Of a stretch of 6,196 nucleotides of DNA, positions 1 through 6,196 are shown piece after piece. Both the position numbers and the translations under genes were made by a program. Numbering within the stretch: the stretch's first letter is position 1; each line of letters starts with the position of its first letter. Where the stretch lies: NCBI GenBank assembly GCA_001766815.1, contig LYOS01000010.1, positions 1 through 6,196 on the forward strand, given 5' to 3'. Origin of the DNA: Candidatus Syntropharchaeum caldarium. Its GTDB lineage: Archaea; Halobacteriota; Syntropharchaeia; Syntropharchaeales; Syntropharchaeaceae. Below the pieces are notes generated by a model. That model saw only the letters and a list, made by a program, of their open reading frames with translations. It was not told the origin of the DNA and made no database searches.

Positions 1-1
1 A

Positions 2-610
2 AGGTGCAGTAGCGATTCCCTATCAACAATAGAAGGGTTCATCGATCATCTCACCAGAAGATGGCTTTTTATGCCCAGGGCTCTCAAGGAACTCAGAAAG
101 ATCAGGAAGAAGCTTGGTAAGAAACCGATAGATATGAAAAAGCTCGCAAAAAAGATTGCAAAGGCTCTGGATGAGATCGCACCATGCTTTCTTCTCTTTG
201 ATGAGATTGATCTGATAAGAGACAGGGATGAACTTCTCACAATTCTGCAGGAAGTTCTTGAGAGATCTGAGAAGGGTTTGATGATCGCGATAGCAGGAGA
301 CGCCAGGGTTGATAAAGGCATCAGGGTTGAGCTTGAACCGCTGACCTCCAAGGAAGCAGAACTCCTTATCGCAAAGCGGATACTTGCAGCACGAAGTGTC
401 GGCGATAATCTTGATCCAATCTTTCCATTCACAAAGGCTTCCGTAGGTCGTATCTACGATGATGTGGGAGGAAATCCAGGAGAGCTACTCGAGAGGATGA
501 AAGACCTCATCGATTCTGGAGTCAGGAGAAGAGTGATGATGATCGATGAAGAATTCGTTGAGCGTAGATATGAAGAAAGGAAGCGTGCCAGGTCTGGTGG
601 CTGTAAGTAA
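2..610 (+). CDS. AAA+ ATPase, 3' portion (5' end lies outside the window); AAA_22/ExeA- or Orc1/Cdc6-like
   Basis: The frame of the 71..610 ORF stays open back to base 2 (RCSSDSLSTIEGFIDHLTRRWLF precedes M71), so the gene enters from the left edge. The stop is TAA at 608-610. There is a Walker-B-like hhhhDE motif (CFLLFDEIDLI). 'VELEPLTSKEAELLIAKRI' and 'GGNPGELLERMKDL' resemble the lid/helical region of ExeA/AAA_22 and Orc1/Cdc6-type ATPases; this is recognised from memory. Walker A would lie upstream of the window. Confidence 0.75.
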   Translation, partial: RCSSDSLSTIEGFIDHLTRRWLFMPRALKELRKIRKKLGKKPIDMKKLAKKIAKALDEIAPCFLLFDEIDLIRDRDELLTILQEVLERSEKGLMIAIAGDARVDKGIRVELEPLTSKEAELLIAKRILAARSVGDNLDPIFPFTKASVGRIYDDVGGNPGELLERMKDLIDSGVRRRVMMIDEEFVERRYEERKRARSGGCK

Positions 611-641
611 GGTGTAATCACATTGGCTCTAATTTTTGCAG

Positions 642-772
642 ATTGAGGGAAAAACCGTTACTTTAGAGGGAGATGTTGAGGATAAATATCGGTATGGAAG
701 GGTTTTGAGGCGTATTTTATACATTTGTAAACTTGGAAAAAGCTGAAGAGGTACTATCTAAGCATCTGGTGA
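642..772 (+). pseudogene. Decayed fragment of a second SNase-like (thermonuclease) gene
   Basis: 642-719 aligns codon by codon with 1549-1626 of the downstream nuclease gene, at about 54/78 nt by hand count. It encodes IEGKTVTLEGDVEDKYRYGRVLRRI, against IEGRTVRLEKDVEDKDQYGRLLRHI in the intact gene. Relative to the gene it then carries an 8-nt deletion and a ~70-nt deletion: 'acatttgtaaactt' at 721-734 is followed almost directly by 'gaaaaagctgaag' at 736-748, whereas these lie at 1637-1650 and 1721-1733 in the gene. There is no start codon and no N-terminal or catalytic motifs, and an in-frame stop follows the deletion. Confidence 0.6.
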
Positions 773-1151
773 CTATCCCCTACAAAAAGCCAAAACTTCA
801 AAACTGCCTCTTTCTATGCTTCCTCTGCTTTTCAGGGATCGTGTAGAGATCTTCTGAAGATTTTACGGGTAGGATAGCAGTTTTCAAAACCTGATCTCGT
901 AGGATTCCCTGCAAGAGGGACAGATATATCCGCGGTATATTCGAAGCCGTTTGTGTACTCCTCAAAGATTGAGAGAAGATATATCACTATGCGAAAAGCT
1001 TTTAATAGACAGTTGAAAGATACGCTAACACCAAGGGTATGAAAGAGGTGTTCTATTCAATCACCAGAAAATTAGATTGTGCCCTCAAAAGCAATTGCGA
1101 GACAGCCTATTCAAAAGAGTTAGGACTTTAATGTAAAAGGAAGTAAAAAAT

Positions 1152-1433
1152 ATGAAGAATAAGATCATAGCGGGTTTAATAGCAACAATAGCCGTTGTAG
1201 CAGTCGTTGTGGTTTTGGACGTAATATTTGCAGATTCAGATGGTGATGGTTGGAGTGACTTTAAAGAAAAAATACTGGAACATATCCATACAATGTTGAT
1301 ACAGATGCTGATGGGATTTGGGGTCCGCATGATCCAGATCCATCAATTCCATCTTCAACTACATCAACAGAAACACCCGTATCTGCCCCTACACAGGAAT
1401 CAGAAACAACTTCTGCGATCGTATCCAGGGTAA
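1152..1433 (+). CDS. N-terminal fragment of the exported nuclease (signal anchor + Ca-binding-type DxDxDG repeat); meaningful only to ~1271, the rest is out of frame
   Basis: MKNKIIAGLIATIAVVAVVVVLDVIFA has a basic n-region, a hydrophobic h-region and a possible I-F-A cleavage site. It is followed by DSDGDGWSD, a thrombospondin-type-3-like acidic repeat. After the A6 run at 1267-1272 the translation becomes implausible (HIHTMLIQMLMGFGVRMIQIHQFHLQLHQQKH), while another frame continues with a second acidic repeat. Confidence 0.6.
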   Translation: MKNKIIAGLIATIAVVAVVVVLDVIFADSDGDGWSDFKEKILEHIHTMLIQMLMGFGVRMIQIHQFHLQLHQQKHPYLPLHRNQKQLLRSYPG

Positions 1434-1477
1434 TAGACGGCGATACTGTAAAATTACAAAATGGTGAAATAGTTAGA

Positions 1478-2137
1478 TTGCTCGGAATTAATGCGCCAGA
1501 GATGGGGCAACCATACTACGAAGAAGCGACAAATAGGTTAAAGGAATTAATTGAAGGGAGGACCGTACGTTTGGAGAAGGATGTTGAGGATAAGGACCAA
1601 TATGGGAGACTGCTAAGGCATATTTACATTGATGATACATTTGTAAACTTAGAGATGATTAGAGAAGGATACGCTAGCGTTTATATTACCCCTCCAAACA
1701 CGAAATATTCATACGAATTTGAAAAAGCTGAAGAAGAAGCTAAAAATGCTGAGAGAGGAATATGGCAACGATCAGAAGATTTATCTAAATGCATAGGCAT
1801 TCTTTATTTTCATTGGGATGCAGAAGGCAATGACTGCTATAATCTCAATGATGAATATGTCACTTTCAAAAATCCCTGCTCTGAGTCTATTGATATGACG
1901 GGTTGGACAGTTAAAGACGAGGCGAATCATATCTATACCTTTCCAGATTTCAGTCTGGCAGGTGGTGCCACAGTTACGTTGTATACAGGTTCAGGAAGGG
2001 ATACAAAGACAAAGTTATACTGGAATAGCAGCGGTCATACATGCAATGCAATATGGAACAATGCTGGTGATACACTTTATTTAAGGGATGCAGGCGGTAA
2101 CTTGGTGATAAGCTATCACTATAGTGGGTTTGAATAA
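1478..2137 (+). CDS. Thermonuclease (SNase-like) domain + C-terminal lamin-tail domain (LTD); the true coding frame extends upstream to 1265
   Basis: SNase motifs are present: VRLLGINAPE (compare S. aureus FRLLLVDTPE), DQYGRLLRHIY (compare DKYGRGLAYIY), NLEMIREGYA and AERGIW. The C-terminal ~110 aa (ILYFHWDAEGND...EYVTFKNP...IDMTGWTVKD...YTFP...LAGGATVTLYTGSG...IWNNAGDTLYLRDAGGNLV) matches the LTD pattern. The same frame is open back to 1265 (TAA at 1262-1264) and encodes ...NTGTYPYNVDTDADGIWGPHDPDP, an S/T-rich linker, then AIVSRVIDGDTVKLQNGEIVR. The TTG at 1478 therefore lies inside the conserved domain and is not a credible native start. Confidence 0.88.
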   Translation: MLGINAPEMGQPYYEEATNRLKELIEGRTVRLEKDVEDKDQYGRLLRHIYIDDTFVNLEMIREGYASVYITPPNTKYSYEFEKAEEEAKNAERGIWQRSEDLSKCIGILYFHWDAEGNDCYNLNDEYVTFKNPCSESIDMTGWTVKDEANHIYTFPDFSLAGGATVTLYTGSGRDTKTKLYWNSSGHTCNAIWNNAGDTLYLRDAGGNLVISYHYSGFE

Positions 2138-2175
2138 TTTTACCACAACATCCAATATATTTTTCATATATTTTG
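2138..2175 (+). terminator. Oligo-T tracts downstream of the nuclease gene (possible archaeal intrinsic termination signals)
   Basis: TTTT at 2138-2141, TTTTT at 2160-2164 and TTTT at 2171-2174 follow the TAA at 2135-2137. Archaeal RNA polymerase is known to terminate at oligo-T runs. There is no transcript evidence. Confidence 0.3.
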
Positions 2176-2253
2176 TAAAATAACTACAATTTCTACAAAC
2201 TTCTCTTTTGATTTAAGAAAATCTGGTATATATTCGATGAAACTATATATAAC

Positions 2254-2676
2254 ATGGGAAGGCGTGAGATGTTCATGTTTGCGATCATCATACTCCTTGA
2301 TACTGTGGACTGCATCTCAACCCGCTATGCGATAGGTAACAGTCTCGGGCATGAGGTGAACCCTTTTCTTATAGATATCGTTAATACTAATTCGTTCCTC
2401 CTTTTAAAGCCAACCCTGATCACATTTACACTTTTTGCCATCTACAAGACCTCAAATATATTCCATGATGATAATCTGACGTTCTTTGCAGCTACAGAGC
2501 TTATCATTCTCTATGCGCTTGTCTGTATCAACAACATCATGGTTCTCTTTCTTGGGGTTGATCTCAGCCTCTCATTTGCGAAGCTTATCCTGATAACACT
2601 GATATCTCTCGCTCTGGTTCTACTTGTGATGAAGGTGTATCATTCATGCTTCTCTCCATCTTCTCCTTCACACTGA
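2254..2676 (+). CDS. Small polytopic membrane protein, DUF5658-like
   Basis: The 140-aa product has about four hydrophobic segments. The N-terminal pattern 'IIILLDTVDCISTRYAIGNSLGHEVNPFL' (LD..D..T......G..E.NP) resembles the DUF5658 signature as I remember it. The native start may instead be the M at codon 6 or 8 (MFMFAII). Function is unknown. Confidence 0.7.
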   Translation: MGRREMFMFAIIILLDTVDCISTRYAIGNSLGHEVNPFLIDIVNTNSFLLLKPTLITFTLFAIYKTSNIFHDDNLTFFAATELIILYALVCINNIMVLFLGVDLSLSFAKLILITLISLALVLLVMKVYHSCFSPSSPSH

Positions 2677-2734
2677 TGCTCACCTGTTTTTCGATTATGA
2701 GATTACCGGTAATTCCAGTAAACCCAGGAACATC

Positions 2735-3182
2735 TCAATCACCTTTGAAGGCTTCAGCAATCGCTTCCTTCAGCTCTTCCACATTCAGCAGGAGATTCAG
2801 GTCTGGAGAGTATGGAGGGGGGTGAACCAGCCATCTCATCGATGGATCATGTGACTTTCTGTAGTCTTTCTGATAGGGACTGGCGTATCCCATTCCAGAT
2901 GTGTCCAGTCATCTCTCTCCTTCAGAATGGGTTTTAACTCCTCCTTCTGCTCATCGCTTAACTCTGAAGGTCCCTCTCTTCCGTAGTGATGAAGAAAAGC
3001 TTTCTCAGGACTTCTGAAGTGATTTTTCTCCTGCAAATTTCTTCGTTTAACTCCTCCTTTCGGGCTTTCGCCCCATATATTTGTTTTGTCTGAAGCCCGG
3101 GTAGCAGAAGTTGCCAGAGCCCTTTAGCGGTTGAGTTTACAAGTGATAAATAATAGAACGATACCTTAAAAGAAGGTGTCAC
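2735..3182 (-). mobile_element. IS630/Tc1-mariner-like transposase relic (multiple frameshifts, catalytic core deleted)
   Basis: Minus-strand pieces lie in three frames. 3036..2836 gives 'YGREGPSELSDEQKEELKPILKERDDWT', like the GRPxKLSxEQ...WT segment that follows the N-terminal HTH in IS630-type transposases. 2833..2735 gives 'WLVHPPPYSPDLNLLLNVEELKEAIAEAFKGD*'; the family motif is PPYSP(D/E)LNP(I/V)E, and here the NP-I-E part carrying the third catalytic acid is missing. 3182..2958 gives a degenerate N-terminal segment including 'GRKPERRS' in an alternate frame. Only ~450 nt remain, against ~1 kb for an intact gene. No terminal inverted repeats were identified. Confidence 0.6.
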
Positions 3183-3228
3183 ATAAAAAAGAGAGGGAAA
3201 GTCATAAAGCGACCGCTTGCTCTCATAT

Positions 3229-3380
3229 CACTCCCTTTTCATAGAAGAAGAAAGAGGAGTGGGTGTGGGTTGCAAACCAGCAGGAAATCCAATATGTGAC
3301 AAAATATATTGAGGTGAGATTGCTGGCACTTCATGAAGAAGATTCGCCGCACCACTCCTCTCATCTGTAGCTCTTCTTCT
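3229..3380. repeat. Inverted-repeat set able to form two mutually exclusive stem-loops
   Basis: AGAGGAGTGG (3253-3262) is complementary to CACTCCCTTTTC (3229-3240), giving a 12-bp stem with one mismatch, one G-U pair and a 9-nt loop. It is also complementary to CCACTCCTCT (3352-3361). The distal pairing extends through AGAAGAAGAA (3243-3252) and CTCTTCTTCT (3371-3380), with a 9-nt bulge at 3362-3370. Confidence 0.5.
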
Positions 3381-3506
3381 TTAGGTGTAGATAATATCTC
3401 GCCTAACTAAGTTAGGATACGTTCTCAATTACCGAGATATATTAGGAAACGCTCCCAAAACCTAATTTTATTAGGATCATCCTTATTAGCACCTAATAAC
3501 CATCAA
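3381..3506. promoter_or_regulatory. Phased array of CCTAA-N5-TTAGG palindromes plus a putative TATA region upstream of the pilin-like gene
   Basis: Perfect palindromes lie at 3402-3416 (CCTAActaagTTAGG) and 3461-3475 (CCTAAttttaTTAGG). A degenerate copy lies at 3432-3446 (CCGAGatataTTAGG), with half-sites TTAGG at 3381-3385 and CCTAA at 3492-3496. Site starts are spaced 30, 29 and 31 bp. The AT-rich TTATTAG at 3483-3489 lies -34..-28 from the ATG at 3517, a plausible TATA box if the mRNA is leaderless or short-leadered. Confidence 0.5.
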
Positions 3507-3516
3507 ACTTTGATTT

Positions 3517-5031
3517 ATGAGGCCATGTCTGATAGAGGATACAGAGGCAGTGTCTGTAATCATCGGTGTGATGCTTCTGATAATCGTTGTCGTGACCGCT
3601 GTAACAGCGCTTGCTTATATTGTATCAGGTATCCAGGAGGATGCAGCAGAGAAGGCAATGCTTGCGGCTGCAATGGATCGTGAAGAGCTTGATATCCTCG
3701 GGATCACATTGTATGAAGAGGCAATGATCGATGACTTCGAGGGTGTGTATGAGGTTGTTGAGGGGAAAGAGGGGAGTGAGATCGGATACAGGATACTTAA
3801 TACAACACCGGCGTGGAGCTTCTCTGGATGTACCTGGGAGCTGAGAGAACAGCAGGTTGGAGCCGGAAAATACTGTATTCGGGTTAACGGTAGCGGAGGT
3901 ACGCTAACCAGAACCTTCTCTGAAGAGTTTGACCCCGGGACCGTGAGCTTCTGGATAAGGAGTACCGATAACATCACCCTTTCTTTTGGCACAGGTGGTA
4001 ATCAAACCATCTGCAGCACAGGAGGAGTATGGAAAAAAAGAAGCGCTACATCCATCAGCCCTTTCAGCGAGATTACCTTTACATTGAACACCAGTGAAGT
4101 CTTTCTCGACGAGATCAGCTATACTAACCCCAGTTACTGGGGCGGGTGCGAGGTTACAATCAGAAACACGAACATCGATCCCTGCACCCTGAAAGAGATT
4201 GCAATCCAGGTCGGTGAGACGACGCTTTTTGCCAGAGACTACTCTATCTTCTTCAAAGAGGGCAATAAATGGAAGAAGCAGGTGTTCACACCCCGTTACC
4301 CCTATGATATACCACCACAGCAGAGTGTACCTGTAAAGCTAAATTTCCTGAAGAGTTTTGGAGAGCCCCGAAAGGTACAGCGTGGCTATCCGCACTCACT
4401 CGGTGTGATTGCGATAACAGGTTTTGGAAACAACTTTGCAAGATGCTTTGCACCACCTGTTCCGATTGCTCACATAGGTATAGCGAGCGAAGATATCGGT
4501 GTTACATATCGAGACATCCTGATACTTGATGCAACCGATTCCTATGATCCTGATGGGTTTATCACGGAGTATCGGTGGGTGATCAATGGAAGCAGTAATT
4601 TATACAACCGCACAGGGAGGAAACTCAGACTGGGAGTGAACGAGACAGGACCTTTTGAGATAGACCTGATCGTGACCGATGATACAGGAATGGTGAGCAG
4701 ACTCAGCCAGATCTCAGGAAATATTACGATAGCTGAGAATCGTAACTTTAACCCACCTGTGAGTCTGGAGGCTAAATATACTAAAAGCACCCATAACATA
4801 ACCGCATGGGTGAATGATTCATGGGGTAACGGTCTTGAGGGGTATCCTGTCAGGGCCAATGTAGCAGCGAATGATAACGCAAGCAAGCCGGTGAAATTAG
4901 AAAAATGGTCCGATGTCACGGATAGCAATGGAATGGTCACGTTACCGGTGGATTCAGGAAGTGGAAACGGAACCGTCTATATCAGCTGTGACGCGATCTC
5001 GTATGATGTAGCTCTGCGTATAGAGGTGTGA
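3517..5031 (+). CDS. Modular surface protein with archaeal type IV pilin-like (class III) signal peptide, lectin-like beta-jelly-roll region, PKD domain and C-terminal Ig-like domain
   Basis: The N-terminus MRPCLIEDTEA|VSVIIGVMLLIIVVVTAVTALAYIVSG fits the archaeal Pilin_N/DUF1628 pattern (charged residue, then G/A, then a hydrophobic helix; compare ...RAVSPVIGVILMVAITV...). ~3730-4125 reads DDFEG...W.F.G..W...G.Y.IRV...GTLTRTF...GTVSFWIRS...ITF.L....VFLDEISY, a CBM/LamG-like pattern. ~4490-4740 reads ILDATDSYDPDGFITEYRWVINGS...GPFEIDLIVTDDTGM, a PKD signature. ~4750-5028 reads ITAWVNDSWGNGLEGYPV...VTDSNGMVTLPV...GTVYISCDA, which is Big_1/Ig-like. I count about 13 N-x-S/T sequons and 8 Cys. 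There is no C-terminal anchor. Confidence 0.85.
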   Translation: MRPCLIEDTEAVSVIIGVMLLIIVVVTAVTALAYIVSGIQEDAAEKAMLAAAMDREELDILGITLYEEAMIDDFEGVYEVVEGKEGSEIGYRILNTTPAWSFSGCTWELREQQVGAGKYCIRVNGSGGTLTRTFSEEFDPGTVSFWIRSTDNITLSFGTGGNQTICSTGGVWKKRSATSISPFSEITFTLNTSEVFLDEISYTNPSYWGGCEVTIRNTNIDPCTLKEIAIQVGETTLFARDYSIFFKEGNKWKKQVFTPRYPYDIPPQQSVPVKLNFLKSFGEPRKVQRGYPHSLGVIAITGFGNNFARCFAPPVPIAHIGIASEDIGVTYRDILILDATDSYDPDGFITEYRWVINGSSNLYNRTGRKLRLGVNETGPFEIDLIVTDDTGMVSRLSQISGNITIAENRNFNPPVSLEAKYTKSTHNITAWVNDSWGNGLEGYPVRANVAANDNASKPVKLEKWSDVTDSNGMVTLPVDSGSGNGTVYISCDAISYDVALRIEV

Positions 5032-5035
5032 GTGA

Positions 5036-5357
5036 ATCGATACGATCGAAAGAGATACAAGAATTCTCGAACGGCTGTACTTCGTAAGATACCTCTACAG
5101 AAGAATGAGCGTTGAGGAATTTGGTAGGAGTTACCATACGAAGGTTTAATTCCAGAATTTGGTGGAGGAAGGTCGTCCAAGCTGACGGAAGAGCAGCAAG
5201 AATACTTCGTTAACACCTGATATTCTCACCTTAATCTCTGAAGAAGATTGCAAGACTTTTCAGGGAAGCTTATGAGCAGAATGCCTTGCTAACTCACAGT
5301 GATGTTGCATTCCTTTTGCATGTTTCTACTGCAACTGTTAGTAAGCAGGTAGTTTAG
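5036..5357 (+). mobile_element. Frameshifted HTH / transposase-N-terminal-like relic (IS630-type N-terminus; last segment DUF1670-like)
   Basis: Three consecutive open segments lie in three frames. 5036-5149 gives 'RDTRILERLYFVRYLYRRMSVEEFGRSYHTKV*'. 5149-5220 gives 'IPEFGGGRSSKLTEEQQEYFVNT*', containing the GGGRxxKL(S/T)xEQ motif of archaeal IS630-like transposase N-termini. 5235-5357 gives 'KKIARLFREAYEQNALLTHSDVAFLLHVSTATVSKQVV*', an HTH-like segment that resembles Methanosarcina DUF1670 proteins from memory. No DDE catalytic region follows. Confidence 0.5.
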
Positions 5358-5403
5358 AAAAACCTAAACTTATTAGGCAATGGTTTTTCTATCCCTAACA
5401 ACC
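5358..5403. promoter_or_regulatory. Two-box element (CCTAAacttaTTAGG + CCTAACAACC) and putative TATA region upstream of the MFS gene
   Basis: A perfect palindrome lies at 5363-5377, preceded by AAAAA. CCTAACAACC lies at 5394-5403, 31 bp downstream of the palindrome start. The T-rich TTTTTCTA at 5384-5391 lies -34..-27 from the ATG at 5418. The layout and spacing match the pilin-like gene promoter. Confidence 0.45.
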
Positions 5404-5417
5404 TCTATGCTCTATAT

Positions 5418-6196
5418 ATGCGAAAAGAGACAGTGGTATATGCGATTTTGATATTTGTAGCGATGCTGAGTCTCACGCTTATGGCACCTGTGATAAAGGA
5501 GTTTGTTATCGACCGCTTCGATGTGAGCAATACCGTGGCAAGTCTGTTTTTCACGCTTGAGATCCTCGCCTACGTGATTTTTGCCGTTTTCTGGGGTTCA
5601 CTCTCTGATACGTGCGGTAAGAGAAGACCTTTTATCATTTTTGGGTTTGGTAGCTCTGCAATAATGTATTTCTGGATGGCACAGGTGAACTCACTCTTCT
5701 CTCTTCTGATGTTGAGGTTCATACAGGGGGCTGTCACGGTTATGGCGTGGTCGATTGTGATGACAGCCGCGCTGGACGGTGTGGATAAGCGAGACCATGG
5801 CAGGACAATGGGTGTGATTGGGATGGCAATGATGTTTGGGATGGGCTCAGGAGCACCGATAGGAGGCTTGCTTGCAGCAAAGTATGGTGTCTTTTTTCCG
5901 ATGTATTTCGCATCCTCTCTCTTTCTTGCAGGTATGCTGATCGCAATAGCCCTGGTGCCTGAATCCCATATCGCAAACAAACCTGATACAATGCGAGAAT
6001 CGATCAACGTCCTTCTTGAGAAGAGAGATCTTGCGATTCCTTTTGTCTTCGGTTTTATCGATAGGTTTACGGTTGCATTTTTTATCTTCGCATTTCCACT
6101 GTACATGAGTGAGGCTTTCGGATCCGGTACCGCGGAACGGGGGATTTATCAGGCACTCCTCCTCCTACCTTTAGTCCTGCTCCAGTATCCGTTTGG
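5418..6196 (+). CDS. Major facilitator superfamily (MFS) transporter, 3'-truncated by the window edge
   Basis: This gene is absent from the supplied ORF track because it has no stop in the window. My translation from ATG 5418 (in-frame TAG at 5355-5357 upstream) is open to 6196: MRKETVVYAILIFVAMLSLTLMAPVIKEFVIDRFDVSNTVASLFFTLEILAYVIFAVFWGSLSDTCGKRRPFIIFGFGSSAIMYFWM...RFIQGAVTVMAWS...GRTMGVIGMAMMFGMGSGAPIGGLLAAKYG... It has the MFS motif A (G-x-L-S-D-x-x-G-[KR]-R-x-P) between TM2 and TM3 and at least six hydrophobic helices. Confidence 0.9.
   Translation, partial: MRKETVVYAILIFVAMLSLTLMAPVIKEFVIDRFDVSNTVASLFFTLEILAYVIFAVFWGSLSDTCGKRRPFIIFGFGSSAIMYFWMAQVNSLFSLLMLRFIQGAVTVMAWSIVMTAALDGVDKRDHGRTMGVIGMAMMFGMGSGAPIGGLLAAKYGVFFPMYFASSLFLAGMLIAIALVPESHIANKPDTMRESINVLLEKRDLAIPFVFGFIDRFTVAFFIFAFPLYMSEAFGSGTAERGIYQALLLLPLVLLQYPF

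Follow-up and report, generated by a model that had tools for sequence, protein, structure and literature searches.

An array of CCTAA/TTAGG pentamers upstream of a pilin-like gene was analyzed in a 6,196-nucleotide (nt) stretch of DNA from the butane-oxidizing archaeon Candidatus Syntropharchaeum caldarium (assembly GCA_001766815.1, contig LYOS01000010.1, positions 1 to 6,196; this whole stretch is called the window). Based on all comparisons, it was concluded that the array is a real, functional-looking feature, which probably serves as an Fe(II)-responsive DtxR/MntR-type repressor array that brackets the TATA box in two promoters, those of the pilin-like gene and a major facilitator superfamily (MFS) transporter gene. 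The repeating element was found to be a directional 55-bp unit, TTAGG-N14-CCTAA-N5-TTAGG-N16-CCTAA. The original prediction had taken a 15-bp palindrome, CCTAA-N5-TTAGG, as the element; those boxes are real, but they form only a part of the larger module, which also embeds a TATA-like box.

The pentamer array and the directional unit

The elements of the array and of the related MFS promoter were recorded as follows, the L numbers denoting the compared loci.

3381-3385: half-site TTAGG, read directly from the sequence at these coordinates
3402-3416, no strand: exact box CCTAACTAAGTTAGG, identical in L003 (4954) and L004 (1216)
3432-3446: degenerate central box CCGAGATATATTAGG with 2 mismatches, at the junction of both units and identical in L003 and L004
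3461-3475, no strand: exact box CCTAATTTTATTAGG, found by exact-motif search
3492-3496: half-site CCTAA, read directly from the sequence at these coordinates
5363-5377: third exact box CCTAAACTTATTAGG, in the MFS promoter
3381-3436, minus strand: left-pointing unit, TTAGG(3381)-N16-CCTAA(3402)-N5-TTAGG(3412)-N15-CCGAG(3432), with a degenerate last pentamer and the gap order of a consensus unit in reverse orientation
3386-3401, minus strand: 16-bp spacer of the left unit, reading CGAGATATTATCTACA, putatively TATA-like when compared by eye with the N16 consensus
3442-3496, plus strand: right-pointing unit, TTAGG(3442)-N14-CCTAA(3461)-N5-TTAGG(3471)-N16-CCTAA(3492), an exact match to the 20-base search pattern and the predicted promoter module of the pilin-like gene
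3476-3491, plus strand: 16-bp spacer of the right unit, ATCATCCTTATTAGCA, with a putative weak TATA-like word CTTATTAG at 3482-3489, bracketed by TTAGG (3471-3475) and CCTAA (3492-3496)
5345-5398, plus strand: partial unit of the MFS promoter, GCAGG(5345, degenerate)-N13-CCTAA(5363)-N5-TTAGG(5373)-N16-CCTAA(5394), followed by an ATG 19 nt later

Every element that the original prediction had listed for the array was present at its coordinates, and the box starts were spaced by 30, 29 and 31 bp, as had been noted. The exact motif CCTAANNNNNTTAGG occurred three times in the window (3402, 3461 and 5363) against 0.01 expected, and none of 200 dinucleotide-preserving shuffles reached three copies, which bore out the claim that the perfect palindromes lie far above chance. 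The pentamer itself was not over-represented window-wide (11 against 12 expected). Ten of these 11 pentamers were confined to 3381-3496 or 5363-5398, i.e. to two promoters, and the sole outlier was a TTAGG at 1120; the same count agreed with the earlier observation that all five plus-strand CCTAA copies fall within the array or the MFS promoter.

All eight half-site positions of the array were occupied by CCTAA or TTAGG save one, which read CCGAG. The box centres were CTAAG, ATATA and TTTTA. The 17-mers at 3412 and 3442 shared 82% identity (direct repeat D1), so that the ~30-bp units were indeed related beyond the palindrome, and the outer half-sites formed an inverted pair (I3; TTAGGTG at 3381 and CACCTAA at 3490). 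The global dyad of the array, at about 3438.5, was explained by the two units being placed back to back. The MFS promoter also contained a half-site 31 bp past its box (5394-5398). No further box was detected in the wider contig (~13-14 kb, L001/L002) when one mismatch was allowed. The notion of a phased multi-site regulator array in the pilin-like promoter, with the same motif at the MFS promoter, was thus supported.

It was also observed that TTAGAAAAACCTAA at 5354-5367 corresponded to a canonical TTAGG-N4-CCTAA site with one mismatch, overlapping the first CCTAA of the MFS box, the number of such near-matches being that expected by chance.

The directional character of the unit became apparent when other loci were compared. 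The four pentamer centres of the unit are 19, 10 and 21 bp apart, i.e. roughly on one helix face. In L003 and L004 the pentamers recurred twice more, between divergent MFS/flavodoxin genes and before the regulator gene described below, in the order TTAGG-N14..16-CCTAA-N5-TTAGG-N14..16-CCTAA. The gap pair was (14,16) or (16,14) in 71 of 91 sites. When 64 distinct units were oriented alike, the consensus was TTAGG tTTTT......AAa CCTAA yTTTr TTAGG GtA...TaTTT.tatA CCTAA, in which only one strand of the 15-bp box is T-rich at the centre, making that centre directional. The N16 spacer (consensus GtA...TaTTT.tatA) contained a TATA-like word in 40 of the 64 units versus 12 of the 64 for the N14 spacer. 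Units ended 14-90 nt upstream of a start codon, the distance from the last CCTAA having a median of ~44 nt and not exceeding 30 nt in 26 of 70 cases. An open reading frame (ORF) starting within 110 nt was found in the predicted direction only for 28 units and in the opposite direction only for five.

The distribution of the unit was determined by scanning the 20-base pattern over 185,579 species-representative genomes (596 Gb), where about five sites would be expected by chance in the whole collection at equal base use (596e9 x 9 / 4^20). Archaea make up a few per cent of this collection. The scan returned 74 stretches, 70 of them archaeal by record title, mostly from Methanosarcinales/anaerobic methanotrophic archaea (ANME)-2, Methanophagales/ANME-1, Methanocella, Methanotrichaceae, Argoarchaeum/Ethanoperedens and S. 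butanivorans BOX1, with a few matches in Altiarchaeota, Bathyarchaeota and Thermoplasmatota. Among the four non-archaeal stretches, L011 was a tandem repeat and L027 was near-identical to an archaeal unit in L055.

Arrays preceded the pilin-like gene in nine orthologous loci (L003, L004, L005/L006, which are two contigs encoding one protein, L007, L082, L083, L084 and the window), the orthologues being 43-76% identical to the window protein. In L003 (76% protein identity) and L004 (59%) the whole array was near base-for-base identical. There, the left-pointing unit was found at L003 4933-4988 and L004 1195-1250, and the right-pointing unit at L003 4994-5048 and L004 1256-1310. The unit orthologous to the latter was also located in L083 (~5912-5985). 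In the more distant loci (L005/L006, L007, L082, L083 and L084; 43-50% identity) the spacers had diverged and the pentamers persisted with an alternation of ~10 and ~20 bp and a phasing of ~30 bp. The loss of the boxes from orthologous promoters, which had been named as a possible refutation, was therefore not seen. A full divergent version of the partial unit at the MFS gene was found in the compact MFS(-)/flavodoxin(+) promoter of L003 (4026-4111) and L004 (285-370).

A paralogous copy of the array was noticed at L003 850-944, where the left-pointing unit was intact, the right end had decayed and no clear gene was present on either side.

It was considered whether the array could be a dispersed repeat, a miniature inverted-repeat transposable element (MITE) or an insertion sequence (IS) terminus. 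Transposase-like and DUF1670-like fragments do flank the pilin-like gene, the outer half-sites form an inverted pair, and the paralogous array of L003 is homologous through its spacers. However, the same array is present in L003 and L004 without those fragments, and across taxa only the pentamers, their spacing and the TATA-like box are kept, not the spacers. Units also stand at a fixed distance and in a fixed orientation before the start codons of iron genes, and the same pattern matched only three of 2.9 million viral contigs, none with the spacer features of the unit. A mobile-element origin was scarcely credible on these grounds and was rejected owing to the unconserved spacers, the fragment-free arrays and the viral-contig control.

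Half-site identity and the linked regulator

The half-site of the array is the CCTAA/TTAGG pentamer of the IdeR/DtxR monomer. In crystal structures each IdeR monomer reads one CCTAA, the single-dimer 14-bp consensus being TTAGGNNNNCCTAA, and the IdeR/DtxR iron box of Actinobacteria is the 19-bp TTAGGTTAGSCTAACCTAA (PMC8464063). In archaea, the DtxR-family protein TroR of Haloferax represses iron uptake under iron sufficiency and binds TTTAGGC-NNN-CCTAAA motifs, which often occur as tandems spaced by ~30 bp (PMC10783522).

The canonical arrangement TTAGG-N4-CCTAA, which lies outside the search pattern, was found 23 times in 532 kb of the loci against 0.4 expected. Thirteen of these 23 sites were located downstream of a unit at a distance of 8-23 bp, which is the expected position of the start site. 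Hence, the same pentamer is used in both arrangements in the same promoters. As with DtxR-family operators, the sites were found in promoters of metal-homeostasis genes.

A regulator of the corresponding family was encoded next to the units. In L003, L004 and L085 a gene for a 155-amino-acid (aa) protein with Fe_dep_repress and Fe_dep_repr_C domains directly followed the pilin-like gene and had its own unit upstream, while in L005 the regulator gene was 1.7 kb away. A DtxR/MntR homologue was present in 16 of the 74 loci, which had been selected by the DNA pattern alone, independently of regulator content, and it abutted the unit in 11 of those 16, the typical layout being regulator, unit and feoA. 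The best solved relative of the 155-aa regulator was MntR of B. subtilis (E=5.6e-27). In alignments with hand-entered reference sequences of IdeR and MntR, the regulator kept the Pro of the recognition helix and the DACxxEH metal site, including the Cys that is found in iron-sensing DtxR/IdeR. We infer that a DtxR/MntR-type protein, most likely loaded with Fe(II), binds the array. The family was common in Syntropharchaeia, ANME-1, Methanotrichaceae and Methanosarcinales, and the database protein closest to the L003 regulator was P0049 (97% identical), from another sample.

The linked MntR-like regulators (L003 6724-7191, L005 13248-13724 and 15 other loci; Halobacteriota members) were also observed to carry a C-terminal tail, WLEHF..FC.TGEH.C, which is absent from B. 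subtilis MntR and from IdeR. The tail could be an extra metal- or cluster-binding site.

The original prediction had attributed the array to an Lrp/AsnC-type regulator of the feast/famine regulatory protein (FFRP) family, and this attribution was not supported. FFRP boxes are ~13-17 bp long with an AT-rich centre, and the Ss-LrpB boxes of Sulfolobus are of 15-bp size, likewise with AT-rich centres. Known FFRP half-sites include TTGYAW..WTRCAA and TGAAA..TTTCA, and CCTAA was unlike these consensus sequences. Regular spacing and helical alignment are features of Lrp-type sites, and the Ss-LrpB control region has three regularly spaced boxes over ~100 bp, for which cooperative binding was proposed (PMC2995911). 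The array likewise holds several phased sites over ~100 bp, and its regular palindromes with AT-rich centres on one helix face do follow the FFRP layout, which is a resemblance in architecture only. Ss-LrpB differs from the present case in half-site sequence, in the family of the linked regulator and in its target genes.

It could be proposed that the 15-bp boxes are bound cooperatively by such a protein or by another family, e.g. an HTH_45-like winged-helix regulator, with DtxR-type proteins acting on the canonical sites only. The 15-bp boxes, their AT-rich centre and the ~30-bp phasing over ~115 bp match Lrp-type control regions, one of which involves three dimers wrapping ~100 bp (PMC2995911). 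Moreover, the known DtxR/IdeR dimer site has neither the everted polarity nor the N5 spacing, and an HTH_45 gene lies between arrays in L007. However, the half-site matches the DtxR-family pentamer exactly, and canonical sites occur alongside it in the same promoters. The targets are iron and metal-transport genes, and the box centre is directional rather than symmetric. An Lrp/AsnC-type gene was found in only one of the 74 loci, where over 4 kb separated it from the unit, versus 16 of 74 for DtxR/MntR, although the tblastn search used two hand-entered Lrp-type queries and was of limited sensitivity. No Lrp-type gene was present in any gene table of the orthologous loci. This explanation was considered unlikely.

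The rigid and directional unit, with a TATA-like box at a fixed place and a fixed short distance to start codons, might also be read as a set of extended core-promoter elements recognized by a specialized TBP/TFB paralogue; an iron or surface-protein regulon would then use a promoter class of its own. The pentamers, however, reach ~35 bp upstream of the TATA-like box, past any known transcription factor B recognition element (BRE), and identical pentamers form canonical DtxR-type operators beside the units. DtxR-family genes abut the units, and no linkage to TBP or TFB genes was seen in the examined gene tables of the loci. We regard this alternative as very improbable.

Several observations count against a DtxR/MntR-type array. 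The original prediction had stated that no regulator gene is visible in the window, and this was correct; the whole contig lacked any DtxR/MntR-family gene, and none was demonstrated for its metagenome-assembled genome (MAG), while the relatives carry such a gene after the pilin-like gene. DtxR-type genes could in principle adjoin the units because they are linked to feoA and not to the unit itself, and pilin-like genes do not count among the classical iron-homeostasis genes. The TATA-like element in the N16 spacer of the window matched weakly. The window contained neither an exact TTAGG-N4-CCTAA nor the 19-bp double site, and its near-canonical matches with up to two mismatches (at 3381, 3483 and 5354) were as many as expected by chance. 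The only pair one helical turn apart was CCTAA-N5-TTAGG, of polarity opposite to TTAGG-N4-CCTAA, whereas correctly oriented pentamers were two turns apart. The array was built of CCTAA-N5-TTAGG and TTAGG-N14/15/16-CCTAA pairs in place of N4 pairs, and no conserved canonical partner half-sites were found at the required positions within the N14 and N16 spacers.

With these points weighed, a DtxR/MntR-type array was still considered the probable explanation, and its arrangement is a variant relative to the known iron boxes that may have been described earlier. The units share with the IdeR/DtxR iron box the pentamer, the correspondence of one pentamer to one monomer, and the presumed metal-dependent repression of iron-uptake genes. 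They differ in that the one-turn pair is everted, the oriented pairs are 14 or 16 bp apart, and a rigid, directional arrangement of four pentamers, 55 bp long, surrounds an archaeal TATA-like box. Their linked regulator resembles MntR: it has two domains and lacks the SH3-like one. The TroR sites are similar in being bound by an archaeal DtxR-family regulator through the same pentamers, with several motifs per promoter and tandems ~30 bp apart. Those motifs, however, are of the canonical inverted N4 type and lie ~100 nt upstream of start codons (PMC10783522), whereas the units have an everted N5 core with flanking half-sites and bracket the TATA-like box.

A further archaeal DtxR-family metal-dependent repressor acting at a core promoter is MDR1 of Archaeoglobus fulgidus, which is said, in the 1999 work of Bell et al., to act through several operators. 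It acts downstream of the TATA box and does not bracket it, and its motif is unrelated. MDR1 has been cited as blocking RNA polymerase recruitment (PMC3074139, PMC2995911), and its motif is GTT-N8,9-AAC, not based on CCTAA (PMC3074139). Leyn and Rodionov reportedly used comparative genomics in 2015 to predict, in many archaeal orders, palindromic sites of the DtxR family (FetR/MntR/ZntR) that precede feoAB and other metal-transporter genes; the pilin-like target, Syntrophoarchaeum and ANME are said to be later than that study or not covered by it.

Targets of the unit and the proposed mode of control

Of the 70 non-redundant genes behind units, 24 encoded FeoA domains. The others included genes for flavodoxin, FecCD, solute-binding proteins, MFS transporters, CbiX/NosD/FmdE/dockerin surface proteins, DUF3793, DUF454 and the regulator itself. 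In the window the targets were the MFS transporter and the pilin-like protein, and feoB was located on the same contig.

Very large CbiX, NosD/beta-helix, FmdE and dockerin surface proteins recurred directly behind units in ANME and Methanosarcinales MAGs, as did triple-FeoA proteins, DUF3793 and DUF454. Such uncharacterized proteins were located in L005 (2547-9528), L007 (179-6956), L017, L034, L047, L056 and other loci. They represent a candidate iron-regulated set.

The pilin-like family was also found to adjoin T2SSE/T2SSF genes in four loci (L001 1-3405, L082 8739-, L083 867-5015 and L084 7574-). Additional CCTAA/TTAGG arrays preceded other genes of the pilus cluster, e.g. at L082 2900-3014 and 6057-6092, which suggests that the entire pilus-like locus is under the same control.

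It was proposed that the pentamers would be occupied by the metal-loaded regulator, most likely in its Fe(II) form. A TATA-like box, and probably a BRE too, would lie within the 16 bp that separate the third and fourth pentamers, and the occupied pentamers would keep TBP and TFB off the promoter. When iron is scarce, the regulator would leave, and transcription would start ~10 nt past the last CCTAA, giving a very short leader. In the window, the right unit (3442-3496) would drive the pilin-like gene and the partial unit (5345-5398) the MFS gene, while the left unit (3381-3436) would now face non-coding DNA. If the array is bound by a repressor of the DtxR/MntR type rather than of the Lrp type, the pilin-like surface protein would be made under iron scarcity.

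A further proposal is more tentative, and we hold it to be somewhat less probable than its opposite. The 55-bp unit, which ranges from Syntrophoarchaeum, ANME-1, ANME-2, Methanocella and Methanothrix relatives to some Altiarchaeota and Bathyarchaeota, might represent an undescribed higher-order binding mode of archaeal MntR/DtxR proteins that also places the pilin-like protein and the pilus-assembly locus under iron control. Such a mode may consist of an everted CCTAA-N5-TTAGG core with the third and fourth pentamers clamping the TATA box, and may involve a dimer of dimers or bent DNA. The arrangement of half-sites raises the question of whether the DtxR/MntR family can also bind DNA as several dimers, in a second mode by which TBP and TFB are directly excluded.

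The unit offers a testable regulatory code for iron control in uncultured alkane- and methane-oxidizing archaea, which have a large need for iron and for which genetics is not yet feasible. It can be used as a marker to read an iron regulon directly from MAGs, and it already flags pilin-like proteins beside pilus-assembly genes, CbiX/NosD/dockerin surface proteins, DUF3793, DUF454 and triple-FeoA proteins. If true, an iron-controlled pilus-like structure would bear on the attachment of syntrophs to minerals or partners.

Genes and DNA around the array

The genes and other segments flanking the array were as follows.

3517-5031, plus strand: pilin-like gene encoding 504 aa, its ATG 20 nt past the last CCTAA, with an archaeal type IV pilin-like N-terminus and PKD/Big-like domains
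5418-6196, plus strand: MFS transporter gene (Pfam MFS_1, E=8.6e-31), the second putatively regulated gene, running off the window
3183-3380, strand not assigned: conserved DNA left of the array, of which the first ~60 nt are a 3' remnant of a DUF2023 gene and the remainder is non-coding; it aligns with L003 4700-4932 and with L004
5041-5340, strand not assigned: rearrangement scar holding frameshifted DUF1670-like fragments only, where relatives have the operator unit of the regulator and the 155-aa MntR/DtxR-family gene

The Pfam matches of the 504-aa protein (Pilin_N, E=2.7e-4; PKD_4, E=1.1e-4) were both below the curated cut-offs. The protein was encoded identically on a contig of the MAG GCA_011052865.1 (Candidatus Syntrophoarchaeum butanivorans) and on a Logan contig. 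The contig region upstream of the pilin-like gene carried T2SSE/T2SSF pilus-assembly genes, feoB and genes for a KaiC-like ATPase and an AAA ATPase.

The DNA faced by the left-pointing unit was conserved but non-coding, and no conserved ORF was present in it. As feoA is driven from the matching side in L082, the unit may be the orphan half of an ancestral divergent promoter. The conserved segment 3183-3380 contained a hairpin at 3229-3261 (inverted repeat I5) with a loop of variable length, and no known RNA explained this DNA, since an Rfam scan of the window gave nothing at gathering thresholds. The segment may correspond to the 3' region of the DUF2023 gene that was lost here, or give rise to a small transcript running divergently from the left-pointing unit. 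A 41-aa ORF behind that unit (3239-3364) was rejected as a candidate gene, as it was not conserved in L003 and L004, where indels shifted the frame.

The fragments of the scar were read by six-frame translation, with a DUF1670 match in L002. The homology to L003 stopped at about L003 6627, just ahead of the L003 unit at 6639-6693. The regulator gene is absent from the window because these gene fragments replace it after the pilin-like gene. Compared with L003 and L004, transposase-like fragments and the 60-nt DUF2023 remnant stood in for flavodoxin and DUF2023 on the opposite side of the pilin-like gene. Pfam at E<=0.01 gave no name for the transposase-like fragments flanking the pilin-like gene.

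A frameshifted transposase-like piece with the motif ...PPYSPDLN..., IS630-like by eye, was noted on the minus strand at 2690-3182. The comparison with L003 and L004 also indicated that the pilin-like gene is inverted relative to its neighbours.

A gene for a secreted nuclease with SNase and Lamin-tail domains was located at 1152-2137 and was split by a frameshift at the A-run ~1267-1273. Its second frame, KNTGTYPYNVDTDADGIWGPHDPDP..., continued directly into the SNase ORF, and both assemblies annotate two genes (93 aa and 211/219 aa). Just upstream, at 620-760, a decayed partial copy of the nuclease gene was observed, 623-647 being 80% identical to 1215-1239 and 660-760 resembling 1570-1740 by eye.

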